A stretch of DNA of 64,000 nucleotides from a virus: positions 1-64,000 of the IMG/VR virus record IMGVR_UViG_3300021406_000012; one strand, given 5' to 3'. The translations under genes and the position numbers were made by a program. Under the pieces are notes generated by a model. It saw nothing but the letters and a program-made list of their open reading frames with translations. It was not told where the DNA came from and did no database searches. Below are positions 314 to 40,015 of the stretch, in pieces (the first letter of the stretch is position 1; every line of letters starts with the position of its first letter).

Positions 314-2320
314 TCACGCAGCGGATTTGATAATCGCTAGGAGATCAGCCGGAAGTTGGCGATGGTACTTGAGGACGATCCGGCGACCGAGTACCGCCTG
401 CTTGGCGGTGAGCCGGGGGGACGTGGCCAGCGATTTGCCGACATGCGTATCCATCCGGTTGAAGCCCATGTCATCCAAGCTGGCGGCGCCGTCGCAGATG
501 CCCGCCAGCGCGCGCAGAGCCGCGTGGACGGCCAGGACGGCCTCTGGGCTAATCTTCACCGCCTCCTCGGCTACTTGCGCCTGGGTGACCGCCCTAGTGG
601 CCGGAGGCCCCGCCCTATCGGCCGGGGGAACGTCAACCGGCTCGACGTCTGGGAGCCGTTCCTTGTCGTCGAGGGCCGCGTCGAGGTTGCGCTGCTTCTC
701 GACGAGGATCTCCGCCGCTCTCTGCTCGTAGCTCCCGTCAAGCACAAGATGCTGGATCAGCACTGACTGGTCCTGACCCCTCCTGTGCGCGCGGTCCTCG
801 GCTTGGGTCATATTGCCGGGGACGACATCAAGCTCCCCGAAAACGACGAGCGAGGCGGCAGTCAGCGTGATCGCCACGCCGGCCGCTTTGATCGAGCCGA
901 TAAACAGCGTCTTGGCCGGGTTCGTCTGGAACGCATCCACCTCGGCCATGCGGTCCCGCTGCGCCGTCTCGCCGGTCACCATCACGGAGGCCGCGCCGAA
1001 ATGCGCCTTGAGCGCGTTCGCCACGTCGTGGTGCCAAATCATCACGATCGTCTTGCCCTGGTTCTCAATGCACTCTTCGAGGTGCGTGATCAGCTGGGGA
1101 ATCTTGGCGACCGCGACCTCATGACGAACACGGCTGATCTCGGCGAAGTCCACCGCTGCGGCCTCACGCAGGGCCGCCACGGCGTTCCGATAGTCGGCTG
1201 GGTCCTCTGACGCCTTGGACAGCTCGACGGCCAGCCGTAGGGCTTCCAGGCGCTTCTCGGACGCTGCCTCGGCGGCGCTCTCCCGCGCCAGCGCTTTCTT
1301 GGCGGCGGCGCCCTCGGGGGCGATAACCACGATCTGGCGCCGCTTCGCCGGCAGTTCCTTGAGGACATCGCGCTTAAGGCGGCGAATCATGATCGACGCG
1401 CGAAGCTTCGCCTGTAGCTCATCGAGGTTCGACGCGCCGGACACGTCCCAGCCATAGGAGCCGTGATAGCCCGCGCAGTAGCGCGTCACGAAGCTCTTCC
1501 AATTGGCACCCAGGCCTTTCTTGTCGAGCGCCTGGACGATCGGCCAAAGCTCGATGGGCCGATTGAGGAACGGCGTTCCGCTCAGAAACACCCGGCGCCG
1601 CGCCTTGAGCGGCTCGATCTCCCAGGCGCGCGCCTTCGCGTCCCACTTGCCGAAAACCAGCGAGGTGCGCTGCGCCTTCTTATTTTTCAGGTAGTGAAAT
1701 TCATCCGAGACAAGGATGTCCCACTGGCGCGCACGCAACGCATCGTGATGCTTGCTCAACATTTCATAGTTGATGATCACGACATCTGTCGCCGGAAACG
1801 CGCCATTGGCCACGCCGACAGACATGTCGCGGACCAGCCATTTCTTGGCCTCGCGCTTCCAATTGAGCTTGGGCGTGGCTGGGCAAATGATCAGCACGCT
1901 CTTGATGCTCGGATCGGCGTTGATGATGCCCAGAGCCTCGATCGTTTTGCCGAGTCCCATTTCGTCGCCGATCAGAACGCTCGGGCGATCCATCGCGTAA
2001 GCGACCGCCGCGCGCTGGTACGCGTCAAACTTGCAGCCCTCGGGGGCCGGGATATCAACGTCTGCATCGGCCGCGCGGGAGGCCTCGATCGCCGCTGCAT
2101 CGCGATCGTGCTTGGCTTGGCGTTGCGCGGTGAGGTTCGCCGCTAGCTCGCCGGGGTCCTTCCCTAGCTGGGCCGCGATCTCGGCGCGATCGGTCCACCA
2201 GTGTTTGCGCACCGGATCGAACCGGAATCCGGCGGCCTTAACGAGGTCTTTCGTCGCGTAGTCAAAGGGAAACCGGGCGATGAATTTGCCGCCCTCTTGC
2301 GTGACTGTGATTGCTGACAT
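314..2320 (-). CDS. SNF2-family (HARP/SMARCAL1-like) helicase
   Basis: GDEMGLGKT (motif I), DEFH (II), LSGTP (III), [11 protein letters not shown] (VI); N-terminal HARP-like FPFD..VK..GFRFDP..K.WW. Confidence 0.9.
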
Positions 2321-2325
2321 TTCGG

Positions 2326-2598
2326 TCACCCGTGCCAAAAATGAGTGATGATCGAGGTAATGATCGAGGCTAAGAGCGCCGCTAGAACGCTGCTCGACAG
2401 CAATTGCAGCCAAGGGAACCAGTGGTTCTCGCGATCCAGCTTTCGTAACTCAGCCGCGTACTTGTCAGACTCTTGTTGCAGCTTTCGTGACTCAGCGCGG
2501 TACTTGTCGGACTCTTCCTGCAATTTGCCGGTTTCAGCGATCGCCTTGTAGATCCGAGTCAATTGCTCGGGAATATCAAACGGGGAAGGATCGGCCAT
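2326..2598 (-). CDS. Small coiled-coil protein with C-terminal TM helix
   Basis: 14-aa tandem repeat KLQ(E/Q)ESDKY.AE.R, hydrophobic C-terminus; own promoter and GGAGTCGAA SD. Confidence 0.7.
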
Positions 2599-2678
2599 GG
2601 ATTTCGACTCCAGAAAGGGAAAACCGGGCGGTAGGCGCCGCCCGGTCCTGATATGGCACTAAACGCAAAAACCGTCAA
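2599..2678 (-). promoter_or_regulatory. Early promoter cassette: -35/-10, CCTA-loop hairpin, GGAGTCGAA SD
   Basis: Minus strand TTGACG-17-CATATC, ACCGGGCGG-CGCCTA-CCGCCCGGT, GGAGTCGAAATCC-ATG. Confidence 0.7.
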
Positions 2679-3013
2679 CCTTGCGACAGTTTTTTCTGCG
2701 CCTCATCCTCAATATATCCCCTCGCGTAGGCCTTGCGCGCGTAACTCAGGGCGCACCGCAGCGTGCAAAACGGCTCGTAAGGCGCGCTCCACGATACGCC
2801 GTCCCAAATATCGCGGCCGGTGACGAGCATGGGCGTGGTCGCGTTTGGCGTCGTCCGATAAGGCGTCGCGGTATTGGTGACGATCCCGTCGCCCTCGTGG
2901 GCGGGCATGGGCTCGCCCTCGGGCCAGCGCACTTGCTCGTACGTGGTGATCCGTTGCCCGTATTTGGCGCCGCAATGGACGCAAACCGGGCGCGGCTTAG
3001 TCGCGGCCTTCAT
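2675..3013 (-). CDS. Small Zn-binding hypothetical protein
   Basis: CVHCG ... FCTLRCA; ATGA overlap with neighbour. Confidence 0.7.
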   Translation of the reverse strand: MKAATKPRPVCVHCGAKYGQRITTYEQVRWPEGEPMPAHEGDGIVTNTATPYRTTPNATTPMLVTGRDIWDGVSWSAPYEPFCTLRCALSYARKAYARGYIEDEAQKKLSQG

Positions 3014-3303: not shown

Positions 3304-3593
3304 GACAGCGCCTCGTTGCTGACCCAGCTATCGCGCGGCGCCGCCCACTTGGGGTTGCCATGCTGCTCGACAATGCGCTCGATCTTGCGCTGATTCAGCT
3401 CCTCATATTCGGTCTTCGCGATCTCGACCGCCGGATTCGGATAGACGCTCGGGCTGGCGGGTTTCATGCTGAACCCGTAGCTCGTCACGCGGTGCGCGTC
3501 GCACTGAATCCACGCGCTGAGATAGACCCGGCTCTCGCTCCCGCGAAACACCGTGAAGCGACCGTTCGTCGCCTTGAAATAGCGGAGCGGCAT
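3300..3593 (-). CDS. Hypothetical early protein
   Basis: MPLRYFKATNG..., start overlaps upstream stop. Confidence 0.6.
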   Translation of the reverse strand: MPLRYFKATNGRFTVFRGSESRVYLSAWIQCDAHRVTSYGFSMKPASPSVYPNPAVEIAKTEYEELNQRKIERIVEQHGNPKWAAPRDSWVSNEALS

Positions 3594-3793
3594 CAGATCA
3601 ACTCCGCATCGGGCGAGCCGCAGGCGGTCCGCGCCTCTTCCAGCGTGGGGTAAATCTCGCCCAGCTGGGGGACATTTCGGCGCAAAAAGCGGATCGGCTG
3701 GAAGCCGTAGGTCTGCGGCACCATCGAGCGCGCAGCCACAGAACCGGGCTGCACATCCCGCACTTGCTGGATGTACCAAACATTCAATTTCAT
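3593..3793 (-). CDS. Hypothetical early protein
   Basis: MKLNVWYIQQ... preceded by AAGGAGTCGAAT SD. Confidence 0.65.
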   Translation of the reverse strand: MKLNVWYIQQVRDVQPGSVAARSMVPQTYGFQPIRFLRRNVPQLGEIYPTLEEARTACGSPDAELI

Positions 3794-3808
3794 ATTCGAC
3801 TCCTTCGT

Positions 3809-3872
3809 AGGCTCATCAGGCGGCGCATCACGCCGCGAGACGGCGGGACATGCCCGCCGCCTTTCGCCTTGG
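3809..3872 (-). ncRNA. Type II hammerhead ribozyme (HH1)
   Basis: Minus strand AGGC-GAAA-[GGCGGCGGG catgt CCCGCCGTC]-TC-[GCGGCG tgatg CGCCGC]-CTGATGA-GCCT; intact core; predicted cut between 3837 and 3836. Confidence 0.88.
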
Positions 3873-3873
3873 T

Positions 3874-4800
3874 TCACGCTGCTAGAAGCGCTGGCGCGCC
3901 CGTGGACGCCTCTTCGTCCGCGTCCGCCTCCTCGGCCGCCGCCGCGCCTCGGAGCCAGTCTACAGCCTTGCTGGCCGCGCTGGCGGCGGTGATGATCGCC
4001 GTTTCCCGCTCTTCGAGCAGCGATACCCAAGTCTCGATGTACGAGGCCGGAGCCTCGCCTAGATCAATGCCCCATTCCGCGCAAATGAACGCGCTGGTTA
4101 GCTCCGCGATCAATTCCTCGGCCGCATAGGTGCGGTCGCCAAACTTGGCCCCATAGGTCCGATTGAGGCGCGAGGGATGCCCGGTGCCGTGGCCAAGCTC
4201 ATGGAACAGCGTGGCATAGTAGGGATGGGCGCCCTTGAACGCCTCAAACGCCGGCATCGCGATGCGGTCGAGCGCGGGCGAATAGCAGGCCCGCGAACCC
4301 TCCTCGACCACGCGAATCTCGGTCGCCTGGACGAAGGCGTCGAGGTCAGCATCGCGCCCGTCCGGATTGACCGGCGCATGCTGGCGCGGCGCGCCAATGC
4401 CCAGGACTGAGTCCGGCAGCCCGTCGCACTGCGCGACGTTGAAAACCGGGTACGCCTTGAGGAAACCAATGCTCTTGTGCTTGTCGGGGTCCTGCCGATC
4501 GCGCACGACCATTTTCTTGACGAAGATCACGGTGAGGCTCTTCTCGCCCGCGCGAACCGTCCCGCCGGCCGCCTTCGCTTGCTTGAACGTGAGCCACCTC
4601 GGACCCCAGCCGTTCGCCTCGGCATGCGACCAGAGCAGGATGACGTTGGCGCCGCTGTAGGCGTGTCCGGTGACCGCGTTGCGCGGCATCACGCTACCAT
4701 GAGCTTGGACGCGCTCGGACCATGGCTTGCGCCACGGCGCAACGCCGGTCTTGAGCATGGCGAGGATTTTGTCAGTGATTTCGCGGTGCATGTCGCGCAT
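3874..4800 (-). CDS. ardC: ArdC-family antirestriction ssDNA-binding protein with metalloprotease-like domain
   Basis: PWRKPW, PRNAVTG..YSGAN, WLTFKQA, V..GEK, VFNVAQ, HELGHGTGH, YA.EEL.AEL. Confidence 0.92.
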   Translation of the reverse strand: MRDMHREITDKILAMLKTGVAPWRKPWSERVQAHGSVMPRNAVTGHAYSGANVILLWSHAEANGWGPRWLTFKQAKAAGGTVRAGEKSLTVIFVKKMVVRDRQDPDKHKSIGFLKAYPVFNVAQCDGLPDSVLGIGAPRQHAPVNPDGRDADLDAFVQATEIRVVEEGSRACYSPALDRIAMPAFEAFKGAHPYYATLFHELGHGTGHPSRLNRTYGAKFGDRTYAAEELIAELTSAFICAEWGIDLGEAPASYIETWVSLLEERETAIITAASAASKAVDWLRGAAAAEEADADEEASTGAPALLAA

Positions 4801-4879
4801 TGGGTTCGACTCCAAAAAGAAAAAAAGGGCGGGTTAGGCGCCCGCCCTGCTGAGATAGCACGTTTTGCAAAACGGTCAA
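4801..4879 (-). promoter_or_regulatory. Early promoter cassette for ardC with operator
   Basis: TTGACC-16-TATCTC, TAGCA-CGTTT-TGCAA in spacer, hairpin AGGGCGGG-CGCCTAA-CCCGCCCT then U-run, GGAGTCGAA SD. Confidence 0.7.
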
Positions 4880-4960
4880 GATCATAACCGTTTTTATTTT
4901 CAGATGCGCCCGCTCGCCATCATGAACAGCGCGAAAGCAAGCGACAGGCCGGTGCAAAGT

Positions 4961-5245
4961 TCAGCCACGGCGCACCTCCGTTAGCCGGATGGCGACTGTC
5001 CCGCCGCGCACAACGCCCTGCCCCGCCTCGCAGCGGTAGACGCCAATTGCAGCCTGGAACGCGCACGGCGCGCACTGCATCAGGAACGAGGATTCGGCCG
5101 CGTCGCCATAGCGGCGGCGCGCGGCAAGGTTGGCGACATGGCGCGCAACCGTGAACGCATCGCCCTCAATCGCCACGGTGCAGAATCGGTCGCTCTCGCG
5201 CGGGTCAGCGGCGAGGTGGACGACATCGGCGGTGAAGCGGGTCAT
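4961..5245 (-). CDS. Hypothetical early protein
   Basis: MTRFTADVV... with GGAGG SD. Confidence 0.55.
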   Translation of the reverse strand: MTRFTADVVHLAADPRESDRFCTVAIEGDAFTVARHVANLAARRRYGDAAESSFLMQCAPCAFQAAIGVYRCEAGQGVVRGGTVAIRLTEVRRG

Positions 5246-5246
5246 T

Positions 5247-5465
5247 TTAGCCCACCTCCCCGGCGACGACGATTCCAAGCTCGGCGAGCGACGTCTCGAC
5301 CTGTAGCCGGCAGGCGGCCCGCTCGGCCGATTTGCGCGCGGTGAACGTTTTACCCTCGCGCATCTCGATCTCGCGCCCGTCGCGCAGGAAGAGCGCATAG
5401 CGGCGCTCGCCTTTCGAGGGGTAGCGCGGGTTCAGGTCCGCGTAGACCTTGAGGCGGCACGTCAC
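5247..5465 (-). CDS. Hypothetical early protein
   Basis: GTG start overlapping upstream TGA. Confidence 0.55.
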   Translation of the reverse strand: MTCRLKVYADLNPRYPSKGERRYALFLRDGREIEMREGKTFTARKSAERAACRLQVETSLAELGIVVAGEVG

Positions 5466-5863
5466 GAGCGCACCGCCCGCTCGATGTTGCCCCACGGCGC
5501 CTGGGCGTAATCAACGCCCTCGTGCGGCAGGCGCACCTCAAGGTGACCAATCACCCGGCGCGCCTCGGAGGCCTCCCAGGCGTCATGCTCGCAGGCTTGG
5601 TAGGCGTAGCAATCGACGATCTTGCCGGCGGCGCCAGCGGCCAGCGTGAGCGGCTCGAAGCGATAGGCCTCGACGTCCGCCACATAGCGCGCATGCTCTT
5701 CCGCGTGACGCTTGGGCATGGCGTAGCGGTAGGCTACGCTCTTGACGTTCTCTTCCCAGAGCAGGCGCCCCAAAAGGTTCGCCGGCCGGGTTGAGACGCC
5801 CAACTCCAGGGCGATGGTGACGATGGCGTCAATATCGCGCTTGGACACAACAAAAGCAGACAT
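5462..5863 (-). CDS. Conserved phage early protein
   Basis: MSAFVV...ID..., LWEENVKSVAYRY, CYAYQACEH..WE.S.A; GGAGTCGAA SD. Confidence 0.75.
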   Translation of the reverse strand: MSAFVVSKRDIDAIVTIALELGVSTRPANLLGRLLWEENVKSVAYRYAMPKRHAEEHARYVADVEAYRFEPLTLAAGAAGKIVDCYAYQACEHDAWEASEARRVIGHLEVRLPHEGVDYAQAPWGNIERAVRS

Positions 5864-5894
5864 GGATTCGACTCCTTCAGATTGGCTGACGGTT

Positions 5895-5963
5895 AGGCTC
5901 ATCAGGCAGCGCCAAACGCTGCGACACAGAGGCCCGCTGGCAGGCCTCCGCGTTTCGCCTTGG
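5895..5963 (-). ncRNA. Type II hammerhead ribozyme (HH2)
   Basis: AGGC-GAAA-[CGCGGAGGCCTG..CGGGCCTCTGTG]-TC-[GCAGCG tttgg CGCTGC]-CTGATGA-GCCT; GUC cut between 5923 and 5922. Confidence 0.92.
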
Positions 5964-5964
5964 G

Positions 5965-6159
5965 TCAGGGGTTCTTGATCAGCTTGCCAGCCGCCAGGAC
6001 GCGCCCATCAGCGAGCACTGTGAATATCGGCGCGTCAGTGTCGCGATCCGGGGTCCACGCCTTGTCGTCGGTGATCCGCCAGTCGGCGAACATGCGCGAG
6101 TAATAGACGAACGCCCCGCCGCGATCGGCGGCCAGCTTGGCGGCTTGCTTTAGTGTCAT
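5965..6159 (-). CDS. Hypothetical early protein
   Basis: MTLKQAAKLAA... with GGAGTCGAA SD; flanked by two hammerheads. Confidence 0.7.
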   Translation of the reverse strand: MTLKQAAKLAADRGGAFVYYSRMFADWRITDDKAWTPDRDTDAPIFTVLADGRVLAAGKLIKNP

Positions 6160-6178
6160 CGTTTCGACTCCAGTTGGT

Positions 6179-6244
6179 AGGCTCATCAGTGGCGGCCAAA
6201 CCGCCAGACAGGCGCCGATTCGCTCGGCGCCCGTTTCGCCTTGG
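6179..6244 (-). ncRNA. Type II hammerhead ribozyme (HH3)
   Basis: AGGC-GAAA-[CGGGCGCCGA gcgaa TCGGCGCCTG]-TC-[TGGCGG tttgg CCGCCA]-CTGATGA-GCCT; GUC cut between 6207 and 6206. Confidence 0.92.
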
Positions 6245-6433
6245 TCACTGCCGCTCAAAAGCCAGATAGGCCTGCTTGTGGCTGATGTGCGGGTGCGTCT
6301 TGATGAACTCAGACGCGGCCCACAATTTGCGGTCATAGCGGGACTGGCGCTCGACCGGCCGGTCCGCCAGCGCTACGCGCGCCAGATGGAACAGGTTGGA
6401 CAGTTCCGCCATCTCAGCGTGAGTCAGCATCAC
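6245..6433 (-). CDS. Hypothetical early protein
   Basis: ATGA overlap; LSNLFHLARVAL...SRYDRKLWA. Confidence 0.7.
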   Translation of the reverse strand: MMLTHAEMAELSNLFHLARVALADRPVERQSRYDRKLWAASEFIKTHPHISHKQAYLAFERQ

Positions 6434-6669
6434 GCCCTCCCGCGCAGGAGGGCATGAATCCGGCGAGCCTCGGCGTTCGATACGCGAGACGAACGGCGCG
6501 CGCTGGCGATAGCCTTGTCGATCGCAATCTCTTGCTCGCGACGGGCGATGAACCGCTCGGCCGCATTGGACCCAGCGAATCCAGCGACCATCACGCCGCG
6601 ATCAAAAACAAGCCAATCGTGCTCGGCGTGCTCGCTCCACTCGTTAAACTTCATCTCAAAACGGGACAT
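6430..6669 (-). CDS. First gene of early operon, hypothetical
   Basis: MSRFEMKF... with GGAGTCGAG SD and upstream TTGACA promoter. Confidence 0.65.
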   Translation of the reverse strand: MSRFEMKFNEWSEHAEHDWLVFDRGVMVAGFAGSNAAERFIARREQEIAIDKAIASARRSSRVSNAEARRIHALLRGRA

Positions 6670-6744
6670 GATCTCGACTCCTTTTTCGGGCGCCGTAGGC
6701 CAGCGCCTGTCCTCCAAATAGTGGGTTGGGATACACGCTGTCAA
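6670..6744 (-). promoter_or_regulatory. Early operon promoter cassette
   Basis: TTGACA-17/18-(C)TATTT, hairpin GGCGCTG-GCCTA-CGGCGCC, GGAGTCGAG SD. Confidence 0.7.
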
Positions 6745-6802
6745 GCTTTTTCGGTCGCCATCGTGACGATATTTTGCGGCCGCTCTCGACTCCTTATTAC
6801 AT

Positions 6803-6951
6803 TGTCCCCAGCCAGTGTCCCGATGACCCCCCATAAACCGCGCCTTTGCGGCGACCATGTCCCGCTAAGTGTCCCGCGTTTGTCCCAAGCGTGTCATGCA
6901 GTCTCGGACACGCTTAAATAGGCGGGACTGAGGCGGGACAAGCCAGGGACA
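6803..6951. repeat. Phased TGTCCC / GGGACA direct and inverted repeats (iteron-like)
   Basis: TGTCCC at 6803, 6816, 6858, 6870, 6881; GGGAC(A/T) at 6924, 6935, 6946; 11-13 bp spacing within clusters. Confidence 0.7.
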
Positions 6952-7161
6952 AACGCTCCAAAGCCACAAAACTCGGTAGGCGTTTAAATCAATTTGGAGG
7001 CCCACTGGCTGGGGTCTATGAAAATCGGCCGTAGGACACTGGCGTTGCACGTTTTGCAAGTCCACGGTGCGTCCAATCGATTCTAGGGGTCGTTTCCGAA
7101 ATTGGTCAATTTTCAGAATTTCATGGCATGAAAAGCAGAAGGCGGTGAGAAAGACAGAAGT

Positions 7162-7890
7162 TTACACCCTGCGGACCTCTGCTAAGTCATTGATATTTGA
7201 ATTTTGCGGCAAGTCGGATGTCGGCTTATCGCTGGAATATCCGAAACGCATCTCGAAGAACGCTTGCGATTCCAGTAACTTACGGTGCGTGCGCCTTTGG
7301 CGAGCGAGTTCATAGCGGAAAGCTTGCCGAGTGAGGGGGAAAAGTAGCGGCCCTATCACGACCGGCATCTGCCAACGCTCTCGCACGCAAGGCGCTCGCC
7401 AGCGCTTTGCCCCGCGCAGCCAGTGCCGCCATTGCGACTCGATCACGCATGGTTTGCGCCAGACCGGCCGGACAGAAACGATTGGCTGGAATCTGCGTCC
7501 GTGACCCAATGTCGCCAGATAGGCGACAGCGCTCCACCTGACCCGCTCGCGAGCAATCAATCGCGCATGCGCCAGCGGCTCGATGCTGTCGGCAAGGCCT
7601 CGACCAAGCTCTCGCAACTCAGCCGGCGACCATGGCGTCGAATCGAGGACATGGCGCCACCGCGAGATCAGCGCCCGGTTCACATAGGCCGCTCGCGCCT
7701 CGAAGTCGTATGGATGCCGGTCGCCAGCGATCCCGTTGCACTCGCCGCAGGAAGGCAGCAGCCAACCGCGCACGCGATCCACCGCGTAAGGCGGGAAATG
7801 ATCCCAACAGGTGGCGCGCTCGCCGCAATAGACGCATCGCTCGCCGATCACTCGGATGCGCTCGCCCACCTCGTTTTGCCGGTTTGCCAT
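7162..7890 (-). CDS. HNH endonuclease
   Basis: CVYCG...DHFPP...SCGECN; TTGCA-N5-TGCAA directly upstream at 7893. Confidence 0.75.
   Translation of the reverse strand: MANRQNEVGERIRVIGERCVYCGERATCWDHFPPYAVDRVRGWLLPSCGECNGIAGDRHPYDFEARAAYVNRALISRWRHVLDSTPWSPAELRELGRGLADSIEPLAHARLIARERVRWSAVAYLATLGHGRRFQPIVSVRPVWRKPCVIESQWRHWLRGAKRWRAPCVRERWQMPVVIGPLLFPLTRQAFRYELARQRRTHRKLLESQAFFEMRFGYSSDKPTSDLPQNSNINDLAEVRRV
7183..7195 (-). promoter_or_regulatory. IHF-consensus site
   Basis: Reverse strand TATCAATGACTTA matches WATCAANNNNTTR. Confidence 0.4.
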
Positions 7891-8666
7891 CCTTGCAGAT
7901 CATGCAAACAAGCCGCAACAGTCAATCCCCCCCAAGACGCCTTCGCCAAGCCTCAGAGCCGGTCGCTGGCAGGCCTCGATCGCACCGAAACGGCTCATTG
8001 CCCCAAAACCGTCAAGCCCCAGGCCTCGCCCAAGCCAATGAGATGCCAGGGTTATAAAAAGTGATTTGCGCCACGACACTGTTTTGGCACTGTCCCCGCG
8101 CCTCCCCTCGCGCGCGCGCGGTCGCCTACTTTCCACCGCCTGAAGCCTTGGGGACGGAGCAGGCGTCCCAAAGGGCGCCGTCCGCGAGGTCCACACACAC
8201 CATGCAGACGTCTCAGCACTCCATCCACGCGCGCGTACCCGCGAACAATGGCCCTCTTTGTCCCCAAAATGTCCCCTTCCTCCGCTCGGGACAAGCCGCT
8301 CCGCTCGCTCTCTTCGTTCGCGCTTGTCCCTCCCTACGGAATACCGTCGACAACGCTCCAAAAGGCAGCGGCCAGTGATCAGCCGCTCGATCCATTCCTC
8401 GCTGGTTCCCTCTCCGGAAGCGAAGATTGATTGTCGGCGCGCGGCGCGCTGGCGTCCCTCGAAGCGTCTCGCTTTTCAACCTATGAGGATATTCAACCGT
8501 GCCCACAACCGCTCTGAAGTGGCTTGTTGATTGGAGGCGACGACAGTTCCGCCTTCGCGTCATTCGCGCGCGGAAAGCCCAGCAATTGCGGGCGTCTCCG
8601 AGGATCGCTGTGCTTGTATCTCCGGATTGTGAGACACGCGTCAAATGCATGGCCAAATGCGTGTTA

Positions 8667-11322: not shown

Positions 11323-11357
11323 GACAATTTGCACCAACTGCAAGACGGAGTCAAGAG

Positions 11358-12844: not shown

Positions 12845-12946
12845 GCCTTTCTCCCGGTCTTAAAGCCGCCAGCTTGACCCAATCTTGCAGTTCGTGCAAA
12901 TTGTCGCGTTGGCGACTGTTTTGCTGGTCGCCGAAGAGTCGAACTC

Positions 12947-13666
12947 ATGTCGGCCCGGGCAAGCAATGGCGGTTCGCACACCGACGCGGAATGGCGCGCG
13001 CAGCTGCGGCGCCAGTTCCATCGCTGCAACAACCCTTACTGCATGTGCGATCTGCGGGCCGACGGCATCGTCGTCCACCGCGATCACTTCGTCCCGGTGA
13101 CCAGCGGCGGCAAAGACGACATCGCGAACATAAGGGCGATGTGTGCGCCCTGTAATTTGCGCAAAGGCGCGAAGGCGTGGCGCGTGTTCCTGGCCGAGGA
13201 GCGCGCCCGTCAAGATGGCCATTTCAAAGTTTGGTCTGCCCACCCCGTCTGGCCGATCGGCTCCGTCGTGCTGTTCACCGTTGGCCTGATCAAAGGCCTC
13301 GCATTCGGTCCGCTGGCGATTGTGTTCCTCGGCTTCGCCTGCTTGGCCTTATTCGGCCTTGGTTGGGTCTCCAGGCTGCTCAATGGTCTCTTAAGCCTCT
13401 GCCTCGTGCCGCTGATCAGGTGGGCGTTGCGCGGCCCCCACATCCAGCGCGTCGGCGTCGCGCTCGGCGCTTTGGTTATGGTGGTGCTGATGACCGGGGG
13501 AGACGCGCGGGTGAACGACACTGGCCATGGCATGCGCCCCAAGCCGAGGCTTGAGGCGGGGCCGATCGCGATTTGGCGCGCGCCCGCGCTGCCGGCGAAA
13601 ATACCGTGGCCGCCTAAGCGACCGTGGTATCTCGATCGACCATTCGGGACACGACCGACCGGGTGA
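12947..13666 (+). CDS. HNH nuclease domain fused to transmembrane helices
   Basis: CNNPYC...DHFVPVTSGG.DDIANIRAMCAPCNLRKG then 3-4 hydrophobic segments; promoter TTGACC-17-CAAATT and GAGTCGAA SD. Confidence 0.75.
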   Translation: MSARASNGGSHTDAEWRAQLRRQFHRCNNPYCMCDLRADGIVVHRDHFVPVTSGGKDDIANIRAMCAPCNLRKGAKAWRVFLAEERARQDGHFKVWSAHPVWPIGSVVLFTVGLIKGLAFGPLAIVFLGFACLALFGLGWVSRLLNGLLSLCLVPLIRWALRGPHIQRVGVALGALVMVVLMTGGDARVNDTGHGMRPKPRLEAGPIAIWRAPALPAKIPWPPKRPWYLDRPFGTRPTG

Positions 13667-14279
13667 ACGGCGTGCCGGTCGAGCTGACATAGCCCAGGTT
13701 CGCCAGCGCCACCCGCACCCCGTTCAGCGACTTGCCAGACTGGCGCAGTTCGCGCGCCATCGCGACCATCGCCGGGTCCATTTCGGTCCAGCTCTTGCGC
13801 CCCTCGCATTTGCCGGTCGAGGCCTTCTTGCGCGCCCGCGCCGCCTTGAGCTTGGCGACGATCATCGCCTTGTCGAACTGACTAACGGCGCCCAGGATCT
13901 GCCGGATCAGGACCGCCGTCGGCGTGTCTTCGATGAAGCTCGACGGCGAATCGACGGCGATCAGCTCGACGCCCAAATCTTGGAGCCGCCGAAACCCGAT
14001 TTCTTGCACCATCAGATCGCGGGCGAACCGGCTGGCGTTCTCGACTAAGATCGTGCGAACGCCGTTGCTGGCGATGCGCTGGAGGAGGAGCCCGAAGCCC
14101 TCGCGCTCGTCCAGGGCGTCGGCGCCGCTCACCGCCGCGTCGTAATATTCGCCGACGATGTCGATGTCGTTGCGCGCCGCGAAGGCGCGGACGGCGCTCT
14201 CCTGGCGAGCGAGTGAGTCCTTGTCCTGGCCGACGTTGGTGGCGCTGGATGTACGGAAGTAGGCGACGGCGTGTTTCAT
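13614..14279 (-). CDS. Serine recombinase (resolvase/invertase family)
   Basis: AYFRTSS, SLARQ, DAAVSG, R.GF, SRFARD, GKCEGRK. Confidence 0.9.
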   Translation of the reverse strand: MKHAVAYFRTSSATNVGQDKDSLARQESAVRAFAARNDIDIVGEYYDAAVSGADALDEREGFGLLLQRIASNGVRTILVENASRFARDLMVQEIGFRRLQDLGVELIAVDSPSSFIEDTPTAVLIRQILGAVSQFDKAMIVAKLKAARARKKASTGKCEGRKSWTEMDPAMVAMARELRQSGKSLNGVRVALANLGYVSSTGTPFTRSVVSRMVDRDTTVA

Positions 14280-14552: not shown

Positions 14553-14752
14553 GTTCGACTCCTTGATTCGGGCGGTAGGTCGCCCGTCCTTCATATAGCA
14601 CATACCGAGACAGGTTGCAAGATCTGCAAATCGCGGTATCGTGCAATCGGCTGGCCGTTTCGACCAAATCCGGACCAGCCCGGGCGGCTCTCTAAGCGGC
14701 TTCGCCCCCCGACGCATCGCGGATGGGGGCCGCCCGCTTTTTTGGAGGAAAC

Positions 14753-22832: not shown

Positions 22833-22941
22833 CGTTCGACTCCATTTGCACGTAATGCAAATATAGAAACCCTTTCGCCCAATTGCAATCGGCGCCATAA
22901 ATCCGCGCGTTGAAAGGCTGGACCCGAATGAGGGTCAAGCC

Positions 22942-24838: not shown

Positions 24839-24900
24839 GTGCAAGCCCCCCAGCAAGGCTCGACTGGGCATCACGGGGACTGTGGCCGGGTGACTTGCAC
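24839..24900 (-). ncRNA. TIGR-like stem-loop guide RNA unit 2
   Basis: Stem enclosing CCA-CAGTCCCCG-TGATGCCCA-GTCGAGCCT-TG; operator TTGCA-CGAAC-TGCAA at 24895. Confidence 0.75.
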
Positions 24901-24916
24901 GAACTGCAAATAAACG

Positions 24917-36313: not shown

Positions 36314-36549
36314 GCACGCAAGCGCTCGACTTCGCCTTATGGATGCCGCCCATCGGCGGCGTGGCGGTCGGCGACGGCATTCAGGTGGCCTCGGTCAATC
36401 CGACCATCACGCAATGGGCCCAGGTCGGGGCCGGAGGCGGCGGCGGCATCCCCGACGCGCCGAGCACGGGCGTCACCTTCGGCCGAGTGAACGCGAGCTG
36501 GCAGCCGGTGCTGACGGCCAACTCGGTGGTCGACGCGGGAACTTTCTAA
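36310..36549 (+). CDS. Small fibre-associated protein
   Basis: DAPS.G..FGR.NA.W...DAGTF shared with next gene. Confidence 0.65.
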
Positions 36550-36561
36550 GAGGGCTGAGCC

Positions 36562-37803
36562 ATGCCGAACCAGATCCAGATCCTGCGCAGTTCGACGGCC
36601 GGCGCGCGCCCCGCCGGCAAGCAGCCGGGTGAGCCCTACATCAACTTCGCCGATGCGCAGTTCGGCGTGTTCAATGCGGCGCCCGTCGATCTGATCGCGG
36701 TCCGATACTTCAGCACCCTCTCCGCCTACGCCGCTGGCGACCATGTGATCCAGGCCGGCATCCTTTACGTCGCCAATGCTGCGACTGGCCCTGGCCCGTT
36801 TCTCCCCGCCTTTTGGGACACGGTGAGCGCAGGCACGGGCGGGCCGTTCCTGCCGCTAAGCGGCGGCATCATGAGCGGCGCGATCACCACCCTCCCGCCG
36901 GTCGCCGCGACCGACGCCGCCAACAAGAACTACGTCGACACGATGGTCGCCAATCTCCACCTGTTCCTGGGGACGTGGTCGGTCGCGGCGAACAATCCCA
37001 ACATCAGCGGCACGCCTCCCGGGATACAGACCGGCGACTATTACATGGCGACCACTGTCGTCCCGGCCACCCCAGAGACGGCGCCGGGAGGCGTCCTCGG
37101 CATCGGCGGCACGCAAGTCAATAACGGCGATCTGGTGATCTGGAATGGCGCGCTGTTCCAACGAGTGCAGGGCTCGGGCCTGACCGTGGTCGAAGGCGAC
37201 GCGCGCTACGTGATGCTGGCCGGTGGGATCATGACCGGCCCGTTGGTCCTCGACGCCGACCCGACCGCCGCGCTGGGCGCTGCGACCAAGCAATATGTCG
37301 ACGACTTGGACGCGCTGATCGCTCAGTATCTGCCTCTCGTCGGTGGAACACTGACAGGTACGCTGAATATTTCTCCACCCACCGTCAGTGCCCGTCTGAA
37401 TTTAAATTCAACAGGTTTAAATGCTCTTTTGCAGCTTAATTCTGTAAACGGCCTTTCTGATATTACAATGGGAAAGGCGTCCAGTGGTGGTTATTCGTCT
37501 ACTATTACAGGCGTTGTTGGCGCAACGCAGGACACCCGCTGGCGGATTGATTTAGTTGATGCGACCGCCGAAACTGGGGGTAATACTGGCTCTAATTTTG
37601 GTATAGTCGCATTTAGCGATGACAATTCGACGACTATCACGCCGCTTTCGATTGCCCGCGCGACTGGTGTTGTCAATTTTTCTACTACCCCCACCGTTGT
37701 TGGGGTTCCAATTGGCGGCATTGCCGACGCACCGAGCGATGGCAACGCTTACCTACGCTCGAATGCAGCATGGTCGACGGTGATCGACGCCGGAACATTC
37801 TAG
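36562..37803 (+). CDS. Tail/side fibre protein
   Basis: QILRS...PGE..INFAD, LPLSGG.MSG, AATKQYVD. Confidence 0.8.
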   Translation: MPNQIQILRSSTAGARPAGKQPGEPYINFADAQFGVFNAAPVDLIAVRYFSTLSAYAAGDHVIQAGILYVANAATGPGPFLPAFWDTVSAGTGGPFLPLSGGIMSGAITTLPPVAATDAANKNYVDTMVANLHLFLGTWSVAANNPNISGTPPGIQTGDYYMATTVVPATPETAPGGVLGIGGTQVNNGDLVIWNGALFQRVQGSGLTVVEGDARYVMLAGGIMTGPLVLDADPTAALGAATKQYVDDLDALIAQYLPLVGGTLTGTLNISPPTVSARLNLNSTGLNALLQLNSVNGLSDITMGKASSGGYSSTITGVVGATQDTRWRIDLVDATAETGGNTGSNFGIVAFSDDNSTTITPLSIARATGVVNFSTTPTVVGVPIGGIADAPSDGNAYLRSNAAWSTVIDAGTF

Positions 37804-37852
37804 GAACTAAGGCCCATACGGGCGGCTCCACGGAGCATGAGGCTAGATAGCC

Positions 37853-40015
37853 ATGGTAAATAGGGTCCAGACGCTTCGCTCGGCGGTGCCGGGTTCCGTT
37901 CCTCCTCCCGGCACCCGCCAGCCCGGAGAACTCTGGATCAACTTCGCCGATCTCTCGCTCGGCCTCATCGACACCACCCAGACGGCGCAGGCGCTGGTGG
38001 CGGTGCGCTTTTTCTCCACCTTGGCCACCTACGCCGCTGGCGATTATGTGGTCGCGGCTGGGGCGCTGTACGTCGCCAACTCCGCCACCGGCCCGGGCGC
38101 ATTTGTTCCTGCCGATTGGGATGCGGTGAGCGGAGGCGGCGGCCCGGGCGGCGGCCCGTATTTGCCGTTGGCTGGTGGAACACTGACCGGGCCACTGACG
38201 CTCGCGGGTCCGCCGGTCAATCCGAATGACGCCGCGACCATGGCTTTTGTTGCCGCCTCTGTCGCCGGCTATCTGCCGCTGAGCGGGGGCACGCTAACTG
38301 GCGTGGTTCGGTTCCCCAGCAACAACAGCTTCGTGATCAACGGGGCGGCCGGAACCCAAAGAGCGATCCTCACTCAGACGGCTGGCGCTAATCGTTGGCA
38401 GATGATGCTCGGCGACGTCACCGCCGAGTCGGGCCTCAACGCCGGGTCGAATTTTTCGCTCACCGCGCTCAGTGACGCAGGCGCGGTTCTCAGCATACCT
38501 CTGTCGATCAACCGGGCGACCGGCGCGGTCACCATCGCTTCGACCACTGGCCCCGGCTCCGCTTCGCCGACGCTCGCCCTCAATGAGTCCGGCACTGCTT
38601 CTGGCAACCTCATTCTGGGGCAGCGCAACGGGCTCGCGCGCTGGCAAGTGTCGCTCGGCGATTACCTCGGCGAGTCGACCGGCAACGCGGGCTCGAACTT
38701 CCGCCTCGACCGCTACAGCGACGCCGGGGCGCAGCTTACGCCTTCGCCGCTGGTGATCGCCCGCAATACCGGGGTGGCGACCTTCAGCGCGATCCCGAGC
38801 TTCCCGGGCGGCGCGGCGGGCAACGCCTTGACGACCGACGGGGCGGGCGATCTGTCGTTTGTGCCGATGCCAGCGCCTTCGACTACGCTGCCGTTGGCGG
38901 ATAGTGGGACGGGGGCGATCGGCTCCTTGGCCACCTCTTTCGCGCTGGCCGACCATGTGCATCCGGCGTCATCAGGAAGCGCGCTGGATATCACTTATTT
39001 TGGCGACGGTTCGGACGGCGCGGTGACCATCACGACGACCGTCGCGCTGACCCGCGACATGTACTATTCCAACTTGACGATCAGTGGCGCTGGCATCCTG
39101 CAAACAGTGGGCTGGCGGGTATTCGTGTCTGGCATACTCGATCTTTCGGCGGCGGGCCCTGGTGCGATTGCCCCTACGAGCTTACCGTCGACCGTTGGAG
39201 GCAATGGCGGAAGCCCGACAGGGGGGACCGCCGCGTTGGCTAGGTCCGGACAATGGTTCGTGGGTTCGGCGGGCGGTGTGGGCGGCGCAGGTTCCAGCAC
39301 CGCTAACGGCAATGGTGCTGCTGGAGGGACGGTTACCAACCCAAATGGCAGTACGGGTTGTCTCGGCGGCAATGGTGGCGTTGGCGGCGTTGGCGGAACT
39401 CCTGGGATCGGGGGGGTTCCAGGGAACGGTGGCACCAATAACTATGTTTTGGGTCGCCTTCGTTTTCCAATGGTTATCCCCATTTATCCTCCCACTGGCA
39501 GTACCCCTATGTATTGTGGCGGCCTTGCCGGTTCGGGCGGCGGCGGAGGCGGCAGCGCCGCGAACGCAAACAACAATGGCGGCGGCGGCGGCGGTGGTGG
39601 CGCAGGCGGCGTTCTCTTCATCTGGGCGCGCACCATCAATCGCGGCGTAGGGACGGCGGCGGGAGTGATCAATCTGTCGGGCTTCAACGGCGGCAACGGC
39701 GGCATTGCTAGCAGTTCCGGCGGAGGTGGAGGCGGCGGCGGAGGCGGTGGCGGGGTCTATCTTGTTTTCAAGTTTCTGACCGGGACGCCTGTAGCCAATG
39801 CGATCAACCTGTCAGGCGGCAATGGCGGCAACGCCGGCACCGGGACTGCTGCCCTACAAGGGCAAGGCGGCGCGGGCGGCAGCGCAGGGACTTTGACGAT
39901 GTGCGACCTCACCGCTGACACGGTTACAGCGCAAATCGGGCCGCCGGGTAATCCGCCAACCGGCACCGGCAATGTGACCGGCGGCTTGGGCGGCGTAGGC
40001 TTGTTCACCCTATGA
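37853..40015 (+). CDS. Tail/side fibre protein with Gly-rich C-terminus
   Basis: N-terminus paralogous to 36562 gene; A.ADHVHP, FGDGSDG, poly-Gly. Confidence 0.8.
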   Translation: MVNRVQTLRSAVPGSVPPPGTRQPGELWINFADLSLGLIDTTQTAQALVAVRFFSTLATYAAGDYVVAAGALYVANSATGPGAFVPADWDAVSGGGGPGGGPYLPLAGGTLTGPLTLAGPPVNPNDAATMAFVAASVAGYLPLSGGTLTGVVRFPSNNSFVINGAAGTQRAILTQTAGANRWQMMLGDVTAESGLNAGSNFSLTALSDAGAVLSIPLSINRATGAVTIASTTGPGSASPTLALNESGTASGNLILGQRNGLARWQVSLGDYLGESTGNAGSNFRLDRYSDAGAQLTPSPLVIARNTGVATFSAIPSFPGGAAGNALTTDGAGDLSFVPMPAPSTTLPLADSGTGAIGSLATSFALADHVHPASSGSALDITYFGDGSDGAVTITTTVALTRDMYYSNLTISGAGILQTVGWRVFVSGILDLSAAGPGAIAPTSLPSTVGGNGGSPTGGTAALARSGQWFVGSAGGVGGAGSSTANGNGAAGGTVTNPNGSTGCLGGNGGVGGVGGTPGIGGVPGNGGTNNYVLGRLRFPMVIPIYPPTGSTPMYCGGLAGSGGGGGGSAANANNNGGGGGGGGAGGVLFIWARTINRGVGTAAGVINLSGFNGGNGGIASSSGGGGGGGGGGGGVYLVFKFLTGTPVANAINLSGGNGGNAGTGTAALQGQGGAGGSAGTLTMCDLTADTVTAQIGPPGNPPTGTGNVTGGLGGVGLFTL

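Follow-up and report, generated by a model that had tools for sequence, protein, structure and literature searches.

We analysed the first 64,000 nucleotides (64 kb, hereafter the window) of the 77,961-bp IMG/VR virus record IMGVR_UViG_3300021406_000012, which is rated complete by CheckV and represents an uncultured phage of 78 kb, probably with an alphaproteobacterial host. Within 2.4 kb of the window lie three complete type II hammerhead ribozyme motifs, all on the minus strand and all intergenic, set among small genes and next to an ardC-like gene; judged by their core, topology and covariation, the three elements are genuine members of the class. In descending coordinates, the stop codon of orf61 (6245-6430, minus strand, 61 aa) abuts the first element, HH3 (6244-6178), orf64 (5965-6159, minus strand, 64 aa) is flanked exactly by HH3 and HH2 (5963-5894), and orf133 (5462-5863, minus strand, 133 aa) is the first gene after HH2. 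Farther along, the stop codon of the ardC-like gene (3874-4800, minus strand, 308 aa) is placed 1 nt before HH1 (3872-3808), which thus directly follows ardC, and orf66 (3593-3793, minus strand, 66 aa) is the first gene after HH1. The ardC gene and all open reading frames (ORFs) here that have a preceding ribosome-binding site lie on the minus strand. The ardC product combines an ArdC N-terminal domain (PF08401, E=2e-34) with a zincin-like metallopeptidase domain (MPTase-PolyVal, PF18818, E=7e-41), and its best matches among cultured phages come from Caulobacter and Brevundimonas phages, at about 45% identity. No family was assigned to orf61, orf64, orf133 or orf66: Pfam gives no match for any of the flanking small ORFs and PHROGs none for those from orf79 to orf66, the only PHROG matches being weak ones for orf97 and for a 112-aa ORF at 2675-3013. 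Longer ORFs that run across HH3 (5965-6336) or start from the AUG within the CUGAUGA of HH2 (5462-5902) were set aside as listing artefacts, the starts provided with a ribosome-binding site being located downstream.

Read on the minus strand, each copy presents the same succession of CCAAGGC, GAAA, a hairpin, UC, a second hairpin, CUGAUGA and GCCUA, with a TGA stop codon 0-1 nt 5' of CCAAGGC in all three. In HH3, delimited like the other two copies by alignment to the Rfam model, folding and parsing, stem II pairs 6241-6238 with 6182-6179 (4 bp), GAAA occupies 6237-6234 and CUGAUGA 6189-6183, and the two hairpins correspond to stem III (6234-6208, 11 bp) and stem I (6206-6190, 7 bp), with C17 at 6207 and a predicted cut at 6207/6206. 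The corresponding parts of HH2 are stem III at 5953-5924 (13 bp), stem I at 5922-5906 (7 bp), a stem II of 4 bp, CUGAUGA at 5905-5899 and GCCUA at 5898-5894, with C17 at 5923 and a predicted cut at 5923/5922; those of HH1 are stem III at 3862-3838 (10 bp), stem I at 3836-3820 (7 bp), a stem II of 4 bp, CUGAUGA at 3819-3813 and GCCUA at 3812-3808, with C17 at 3837 and a predicted cut at 3837/3836. A GGAGUCGAA / GGAGTCGAA ribosome-binding site follows GCCUA by 4-18 nt and an ATG lies 3-6 nt beyond it; the GGAGTCGAA word stands at 6171-6163 after HH3, at 5875-5867 after HH2 and at 3795-3803 after HH1, and has 7 minus-strand occurrences in the window versus 0.67 expected. Reading and parsing thus confirm to the base a preliminary description of this locus, which had recognised three minus-strand spacers with the hammerhead order and stop-codon abutment, and the cut sites it named are identical to the parsed borders between C17 and stem I. 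Its statement that stems I and III differ completely between copies around an invariant core holds for the core but not for the completeness of the difference, stem I of HH1 and stem I of HH2 being one compensated pair apart.

The catalytic core, defined as C3 U4 G5 A6 N7 G8 A9, G12 A13 A14, an A15.1-U16.1 pair and H17 (not G), is present in all three copies as CUGAUGA, GAAA and U-C at the junction, and the permutation is that of type II throughout, with stem II open and stems I and III closed by loops. The pairs flanking the core are likewise intact in every copy, 10.1-11.1 as G-C, 15.1-16.1 as A-U, and 1.1-2.1 as G-C in HH1 and HH2 and as U-A in HH3. The acceptance rule of Perreault et al. 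(2011) allows no mispair directly beside the core (10.1-11.1, 1.1-2.1, 15.1-16.1) (PMC3088659), and with an exact core and no flanking mispair all three copies agree with the rules of these authors. The word CTGATGAGCCTA occurs 3 times in the window versus 0.23 expected, and a descriptor of the full type II motif, requiring the core, 4 bp or more in each of two capped stems and 2 bp or more in stem II, retrieves 3 sites from the window but none from any of 40 dinucleotide-preserving shuffles. The minimum-free-energy fold of each copy is a three-way junction, with z-scores from -2.5 to -3.3. In an Infernal comparison with Rfam, a check proposed in the preliminary description, the Hammerhead_II model (RF02276) aligns to all three over its full length (model positions 1-66 of 66), but each of the scores, 33.2 bits for HH3, 23.0 for HH1 and 21.8 for HH2, is below the gathering score of 37. 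A fourth match at 3421-3393 (14 bits) falls inside orf97, is devoid of the core and was rejected.

Five contigs are relatives of the source phage, with 60-100% protein identity across shared genes; all carry the same hammerhead subfamily and the same ribosome-binding word, and the related phages have at least two hammerhead copies each. When 12 copies from the source phage and its relatives are aligned, 97.6% of cells are paired and 14 of the 21 pairs are changed on both sides, an outcome reached by none of 500 shuffles, with slid controls paired at 33-47%. Stem II is invariant in this alignment and therefore uninformative for covariation, and the core columns are invariant in all 12 copies with the exception of N7, which is C in L019_c. 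The HH2 orthologue that precedes the orf133 homologue in relative L042 shows two doubly compensated pairs in stem I, and the HH1 orthologue after ardC in L042 has a wholly different stem III that is still paired. Additional copies are seen in two longer records: G004 (the record of L019) has five hammerheads of the subfamily in about 4 kb (4433-8167), some of them with CUGACGA (C at N7), and G003 (the record of L042) has extra subfamily copies at 35647-38617, one of which joins the stem I of HH3 to a different stem III.

An exact-pattern scan of IMG/VR recovered the element in at least 119 contigs, with clusters of 2-5 copies in at least 26 loci. Among the matches listed, to which the following family figures refer, both stems have at least 5 perfect pairs in 108 of 148 unique cores versus 0.08 after shuffling, and several pair types occur at every stem position, with C as the H17 residue in 126 of the 132 parsed cores. 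The modal length of stem III is 6-7 bp in the family versus 10-13 bp in HH1-HH3. The position relative to genes recurs as well, the element being located nearly always between one gene's stop codon and the start that follows, on the coding strand. In 77 of the 148 copies an ORF terminates at the element and, within 70 nt, a ribosome-binding site, a start and an ORF come next, versus 2 in the antisense control. Stop codon and element are separated by -2 to +3 nt in 88 of 115 cases, the AAGGC fixed in the search pattern favouring overlap with TAA and TGA. The source phage displays the clustered arrangement too, with three intergenic hammerheads close together on the coding strand of a phage region.

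In the type II consensus, loop I forms a pseudoknot of about 4 bp or more with the sequence 3' of stem II, a feature of most members but not of every one (PMC3088659), and RF02276 places CCA in this 3' tail and UGG in loop I. Loop I could pair with the 3' tail over at least 4 bp in 50% of the 132 parsed members, versus 29% (sd 3.6%) in permutations, and pairing with the 5' flank (7.6% versus 10.9% in permutations) is not enriched. HH3 has a candidate pseudoknot at the canonical type II place, formed by CCAA at 6174-6177 (minus strand), directly after stem II, and loop I UUGG at 6199-6196. The candidate in HH2, GCCAA at 5882-5886 (minus strand, 7 nt after GCCUA) with loop I UUGGC at 5915-5911, is uncertain, L069 keeping the tail with a different loop. 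The preliminary description had instead paired loop I UUUGG with the 5' CCAA, which is feasible on paper but is not favoured, comparative data pointing to the 3' tail; the 5' CC of CCAAGGC is not kept in relatives, including L019_a, which has loop I UUUGG.

Between the HH3/HH2 block and ardC, a terminator-like hairpin (4848-4826, minus strand; 8 bp, 7 of them G-C, then a T-run) lies next to a promoter-like site at 4879-4852 (minus strand; TTGACC at 4879-4874, 16 nt, TATCTC at 4857-4852), a candidate for the ardC/HH1 unit that was read from the sequence, is not reported by a consensus scan, and overlaps a degenerate TTGCA-N5-TGC operator-like word near 4870. For the HH3/HH2 unit, one candidate promoter is found at 6744-6716 (minus strand; TTGACA, 17 nt, CTATTT), followed by a hairpin at 6707-6689 and GGAGTCGA, and a second one at 7109-7080 (minus strand; TTGACC-18-TAGAAT). 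The terminator-like hairpin together with the promoter-like site therefore suggests that the ribozymes are distributed over two transcription units rather than one operon. Of the single polycistronic operon put forward in the preliminary description, the coding-strand location between cistrons and the placement of HH1 directly after ardC stand, but its unity gives way to the predicted terminator/promoter split. Taken as a whole, the interpretation offered there is largely supported, and it goes too far on the single operon, on the 5' partner of loop I and in labelling the genes as early or as host-takeover genes.

The ardC promoter region is one of four occurrences of a minus-strand module (4879-4798, 2678-2596, 14620-14550 and 6744-6658) made of promoter-like hexamers, a hairpin, GGAGUCGA and a start codon. 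The module hairpin is G+C-rich, with 3-8 nt separating it from the preceding -10 hexamer and a loop that contains CCUA(A/C), CCUA being common to these loops and to the GCCUA of the ribozymes; two of the four hairpins are followed by T-runs and are hence terminator-like. Primary transcripts of the source phage may, on this arrangement of signals, begin with a hairpin in the same way as ribozyme-cut ones. A module similar to that of ardC precedes orf90 (2678-2624). Several promoter-like sites are also overlapped by copies of a 15-bp palindrome, TTGCA-N5-TGCAA, which occurs 7 times in the window (7045-7059, 7893-7907, 11329-11343, 12885-12899, 14615-14629, 22846-22860 and 24895-24909) versus about 0.06 expected by a rough estimate, and which resembles an operator bound by a phage regulator.

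All three ribozymes coincide with breaks of homology to near-identical relatives. The relative L058, which is 96-98% identical, lacks the cassette consisting of orf61, HH3 and the ribosome-binding site (window 6160-6435), and at the place of HH1 (window 3805-3886) another small ORF is found together with a plain hairpin capped by a GNRA loop; the similarity shared with L069 stops at 5905, on the 5' border of the HH2 CUGAUGA. Identical stem I sequences are moreover found at non-orthologous positions, in L069 and L035_a as well as in HH3 and the G003 copy with the other stem III. Such breaks suggest that the ribozymes move together with gene cassettes or stand at the joints of exchange. A third cassette difference with L058 is the absence of orf90 (window 2311-2604), and the joints of the three coincide with a ribosome-binding site, a start codon or a ribozyme.

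Building on motif, fold, covariation, gene-relative position and conservation in related phages, all of which are observed here, we consider it likely that the three elements are genuine self-cleaving type II hammerheads, transcribed within minus-strand multi-gene messages that they cut into hairpin-capped pieces, uncoupling the decay of neighbouring cistrons. Close analogues have been demonstrated elsewhere to cut both in vitro and in cells; for the source phage, cleavage at 6207/6206, 5923/5922 and 3837/3836 and a stabilising role of the terminal hairpins are what we infer. Once about 65 nt past the upstream stop codon have been transcribed, the RNA would fold into a three-way junction and cut itself after C17. 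The upstream product would carry a 2',3'-cyclic phosphate at a 3' end located one base past the G+C-rich stem III hairpin (10-13 bp), and the downstream product would open directly with the stem I hairpin, its 5'-OH flush on the stem, and continue through CUGAUGA-GCCUA and the GGAGUCGAA ribosome-binding site into the next gene, so that as a consequence of the type II permutation both cleavage products would carry terminal hairpins. Hairpins at the 5' terminus and 5' ends other than monophosphates delay RNase E-dependent turnover, and a hairpin at the 3' end bars the way to 3' exonucleases. Cuts at HH3 and HH2 would release orf64 as a 284-nt single-gene RNA (6206-5923), a cut at HH1 would part ardC from the small genes behind it, and the decay, hence the dosage, of neighbouring cistrons would be uncoupled.

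Several observations weigh against this proposal. At the Rfam gathering threshold (37 bits) the whole window gives zero matches, and the three hammerheads surface only with permissive filters; the low scores can be traced to the long stem III and to a gap in the stem I region of the model rather than to the core, and the hammerheads of close relatives, at 24-33 bits, are likewise below the Hammerhead_II threshold. In a 153-nt context, the predicted fold of HH1 is without stems I and II, and its 3' tail offers loop I no partner of at least 4 bp; HH1, with no partner, and HH2, with a displaced one, may be slow at cellular Mg2+. As L058 is without HH3 and has a plain hairpin at the HH1 place, the ribozymes appear dispensable for the neighbouring genes. 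In silico, the unpaired probability predicted for the ribosome-binding site changes on cutting from 0.09 to 0.56 in one case, and is 0.25 before versus 0.24 after and 0.43 before versus 0.40 after in the other two; with no consistent change in predicted accessibility we rejected the idea of cutting as a switch that frees the ribosome-binding site. Finally, a 2019 review regards the biological role of bacterial and phage hammerheads as still undetermined (PMC6765202).

The homology breaks lend themselves to a different emphasis. It is conceivable, if rather unlikely, that within this lineage of phages the hammerhead is the joint of a mobile cassette of ORF, ribozyme and ribosome-binding site, with the invariant core and the fixed site acting as recombination linkers in exchanges of small accessory genes and the cut providing any newly acquired gene, at whatever place it inserts, with an autonomous hairpin-capped message. 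In a related version, which we regard as unlikely and slightly the more doubtful of the two, the ribozymes would cut but persist mainly as module linkers, gene, hammerhead and ribosome-binding site forming the mobile cassette, the invariant words AAGGCGAAA, CUGAUGAGCCUA and GGAGUCGAA supplying short homologies for gene swaps among related phages, and any effect on message stability being secondary. This linker role would account for the placement of 3/3 ribozymes at homology breaks, for the loss in L058 of exactly orf61, HH3 and the ribosome-binding site and the exchange of HH1 for a small ORF and a hairpin, and for the L069 homology that stops at the edge of the HH2 CUGAUGA and the identical stem I at non-orthologous places. 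The junctions number only three, however, and intergenic spacers are the usual joints of phage mosaics regardless of their content; the joint of the orf90 indel is itself a promoter-hairpin module with no hammerhead, and the strong purifying selection on the core, coupled to compensatory change in the stems, argues for a function at the RNA level.

Cutting could also be conditional, depending on whether the upstream gene is being translated, or on Mg2+ in the copies that lack a pseudoknot, such that segmentation would be coupled to translation. With only 0-1 nt between the stop codon and the 5' strand of the ribozyme, stem II, GAAA and some of stem III would be hidden beneath a ribosome that is terminating. 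The stop codon overlapping or abutting the element in the 88 of 115 family cases noted above and the differing pseudoknot potential of HH1, HH2 and HH3 are consistent with such control, and regulated cutting of phage hammerheads has been raised by Perreault et al. (PMC3088659). We nonetheless hold it improbable: tight packing of stop, spacer and start is normal in phages, the fixed AAGGC in the search pattern favours TAA/TGA overlaps, no ligand-binding or switch element is visible, and the prophage hammerheads that have been assayed cut efficiently in plain in vitro transcription (PMC3088659). Most unlikely of all is that the motifs are catalytically dead or irrelevant and that their two stable hairpins are structural punctuation, protecting RNA ends or read by host RNases, for although the scores under the Rfam gathering score, the plain GNRA-capped hairpin in the HH1 spacer of L058 and the promoter-proximal hairpins that precede the same ribosome-binding site elsewhere in the window would suit it, the catalytic nucleotides are intact in 3/3 copies and invariant in 12/12 relatives bar the permitted N7 (C in L019_c) as the stems drift freely, a combination that would be surprising unless catalysis were under selection.

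A hammerhead with the same AAGGCGAAA and CUGAUGAGCCUA core is present on scaffold KI911970.1 of Microvirga lupini (L131, 2269-2337), a Hyphomicrobiales genome from which the GGAGTCGA ribosome-binding word is absent. A scan of genome contigs for the exact subfamily pattern gave 6 scattered matches only, Microvirga lupini among them, which is insufficient for naming a host, and this hammerhead is a weak pointer to alphaproteobacterial hosts. Elsewhere in the window, a SNF2-family helicase gene (699 aa, 314-2413, minus strand) lies downstream of the small-gene block, and a serine recombinase gene (Resolvase N-terminal domain, 221 aa, 13614-14279, minus strand) farther upstream, the presence of the latter suggesting that the phage is temperate or invertase-bearing.

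Segmentation of phage transcripts by hammerheads is an already published hypothesis, proposed and partly tested for prophage clusters (PMC3088659). Perreault et al. described type II hammerheads in 2011 as often clustered around single genes in prophages, and proposed that they process long phage transcripts; in a prophage of Agrobacterium tumefaciens C58, a triple hammerhead flanking an anti-restriction gene, 'ardA', cuts in vitro and in E. coli (PMC3088659). The likeness to the source phage is close, as both clusters pack three hammerheads into about 2 kb of a single strand of phage-derived DNA, flank single genes, have one hammerhead adjoining an anti-restriction gene, and belong to proteobacterial hosts, with the same proposed role of turning a long phage transcript into single-gene or short messages. 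They differ in that cleavage has been demonstrated for the A. tumefaciens cluster and is predicted for that of the source phage, which is split into two units by a terminator-like hairpin; the anti-restriction gene is described as 'ardA' there and is ArdC-type by Pfam here. Relative to RF02276, the source copies have the same core, the same permutation and GUC at the cut site, and HH3 follows the consensus in having loop I UUGG and CCAA right after stem II, but at 22-33 bits they remain below 37, their stem I is shorter than that of the model, and HH1 is without an evident pseudoknot.

In Desulfovibrio vulgaris, three type II hammerheads near hypothetical and phage-like genes were found by cyPhyRNA-seq to cut in cells, leaving 2',3'-cyclic phosphate and 5'-OH ends (PMC8782182). 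Those occupy three separate chromosomal places, whereas the three of the source phage form one cluster in a gene block. A parallel of another kind is offered by the early transcript of phage T7, which is processed by RNase III, a host protein enzyme acting at double-stranded RNA sites. There too a long message is cut between cistrons and the pieces keep end hairpins, but the RNA of the source phage would cut itself and leave other end chemistry, and the analogy is one of function only.

The source phage thereby adds a clean and well-conserved example to a class described in 2011, and it illustrates that the default Rfam threshold misses this common phage hammerhead subfamily. The modest value of the find resides in the comparison with L058, where the cassette is absent and a plain hairpin occupies the same junction, and in primary transcripts that may begin with a hairpin. 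Near-identical natural pairs that differ in a ribozyme at one junction, such as the source phage and L058, would open the role of phage hammerheads to direct test. Overall, the L058 and hairpin comparisons offer a simple way of asking whether the purpose of such ribozymes is to provide each gene segment with protected ends.

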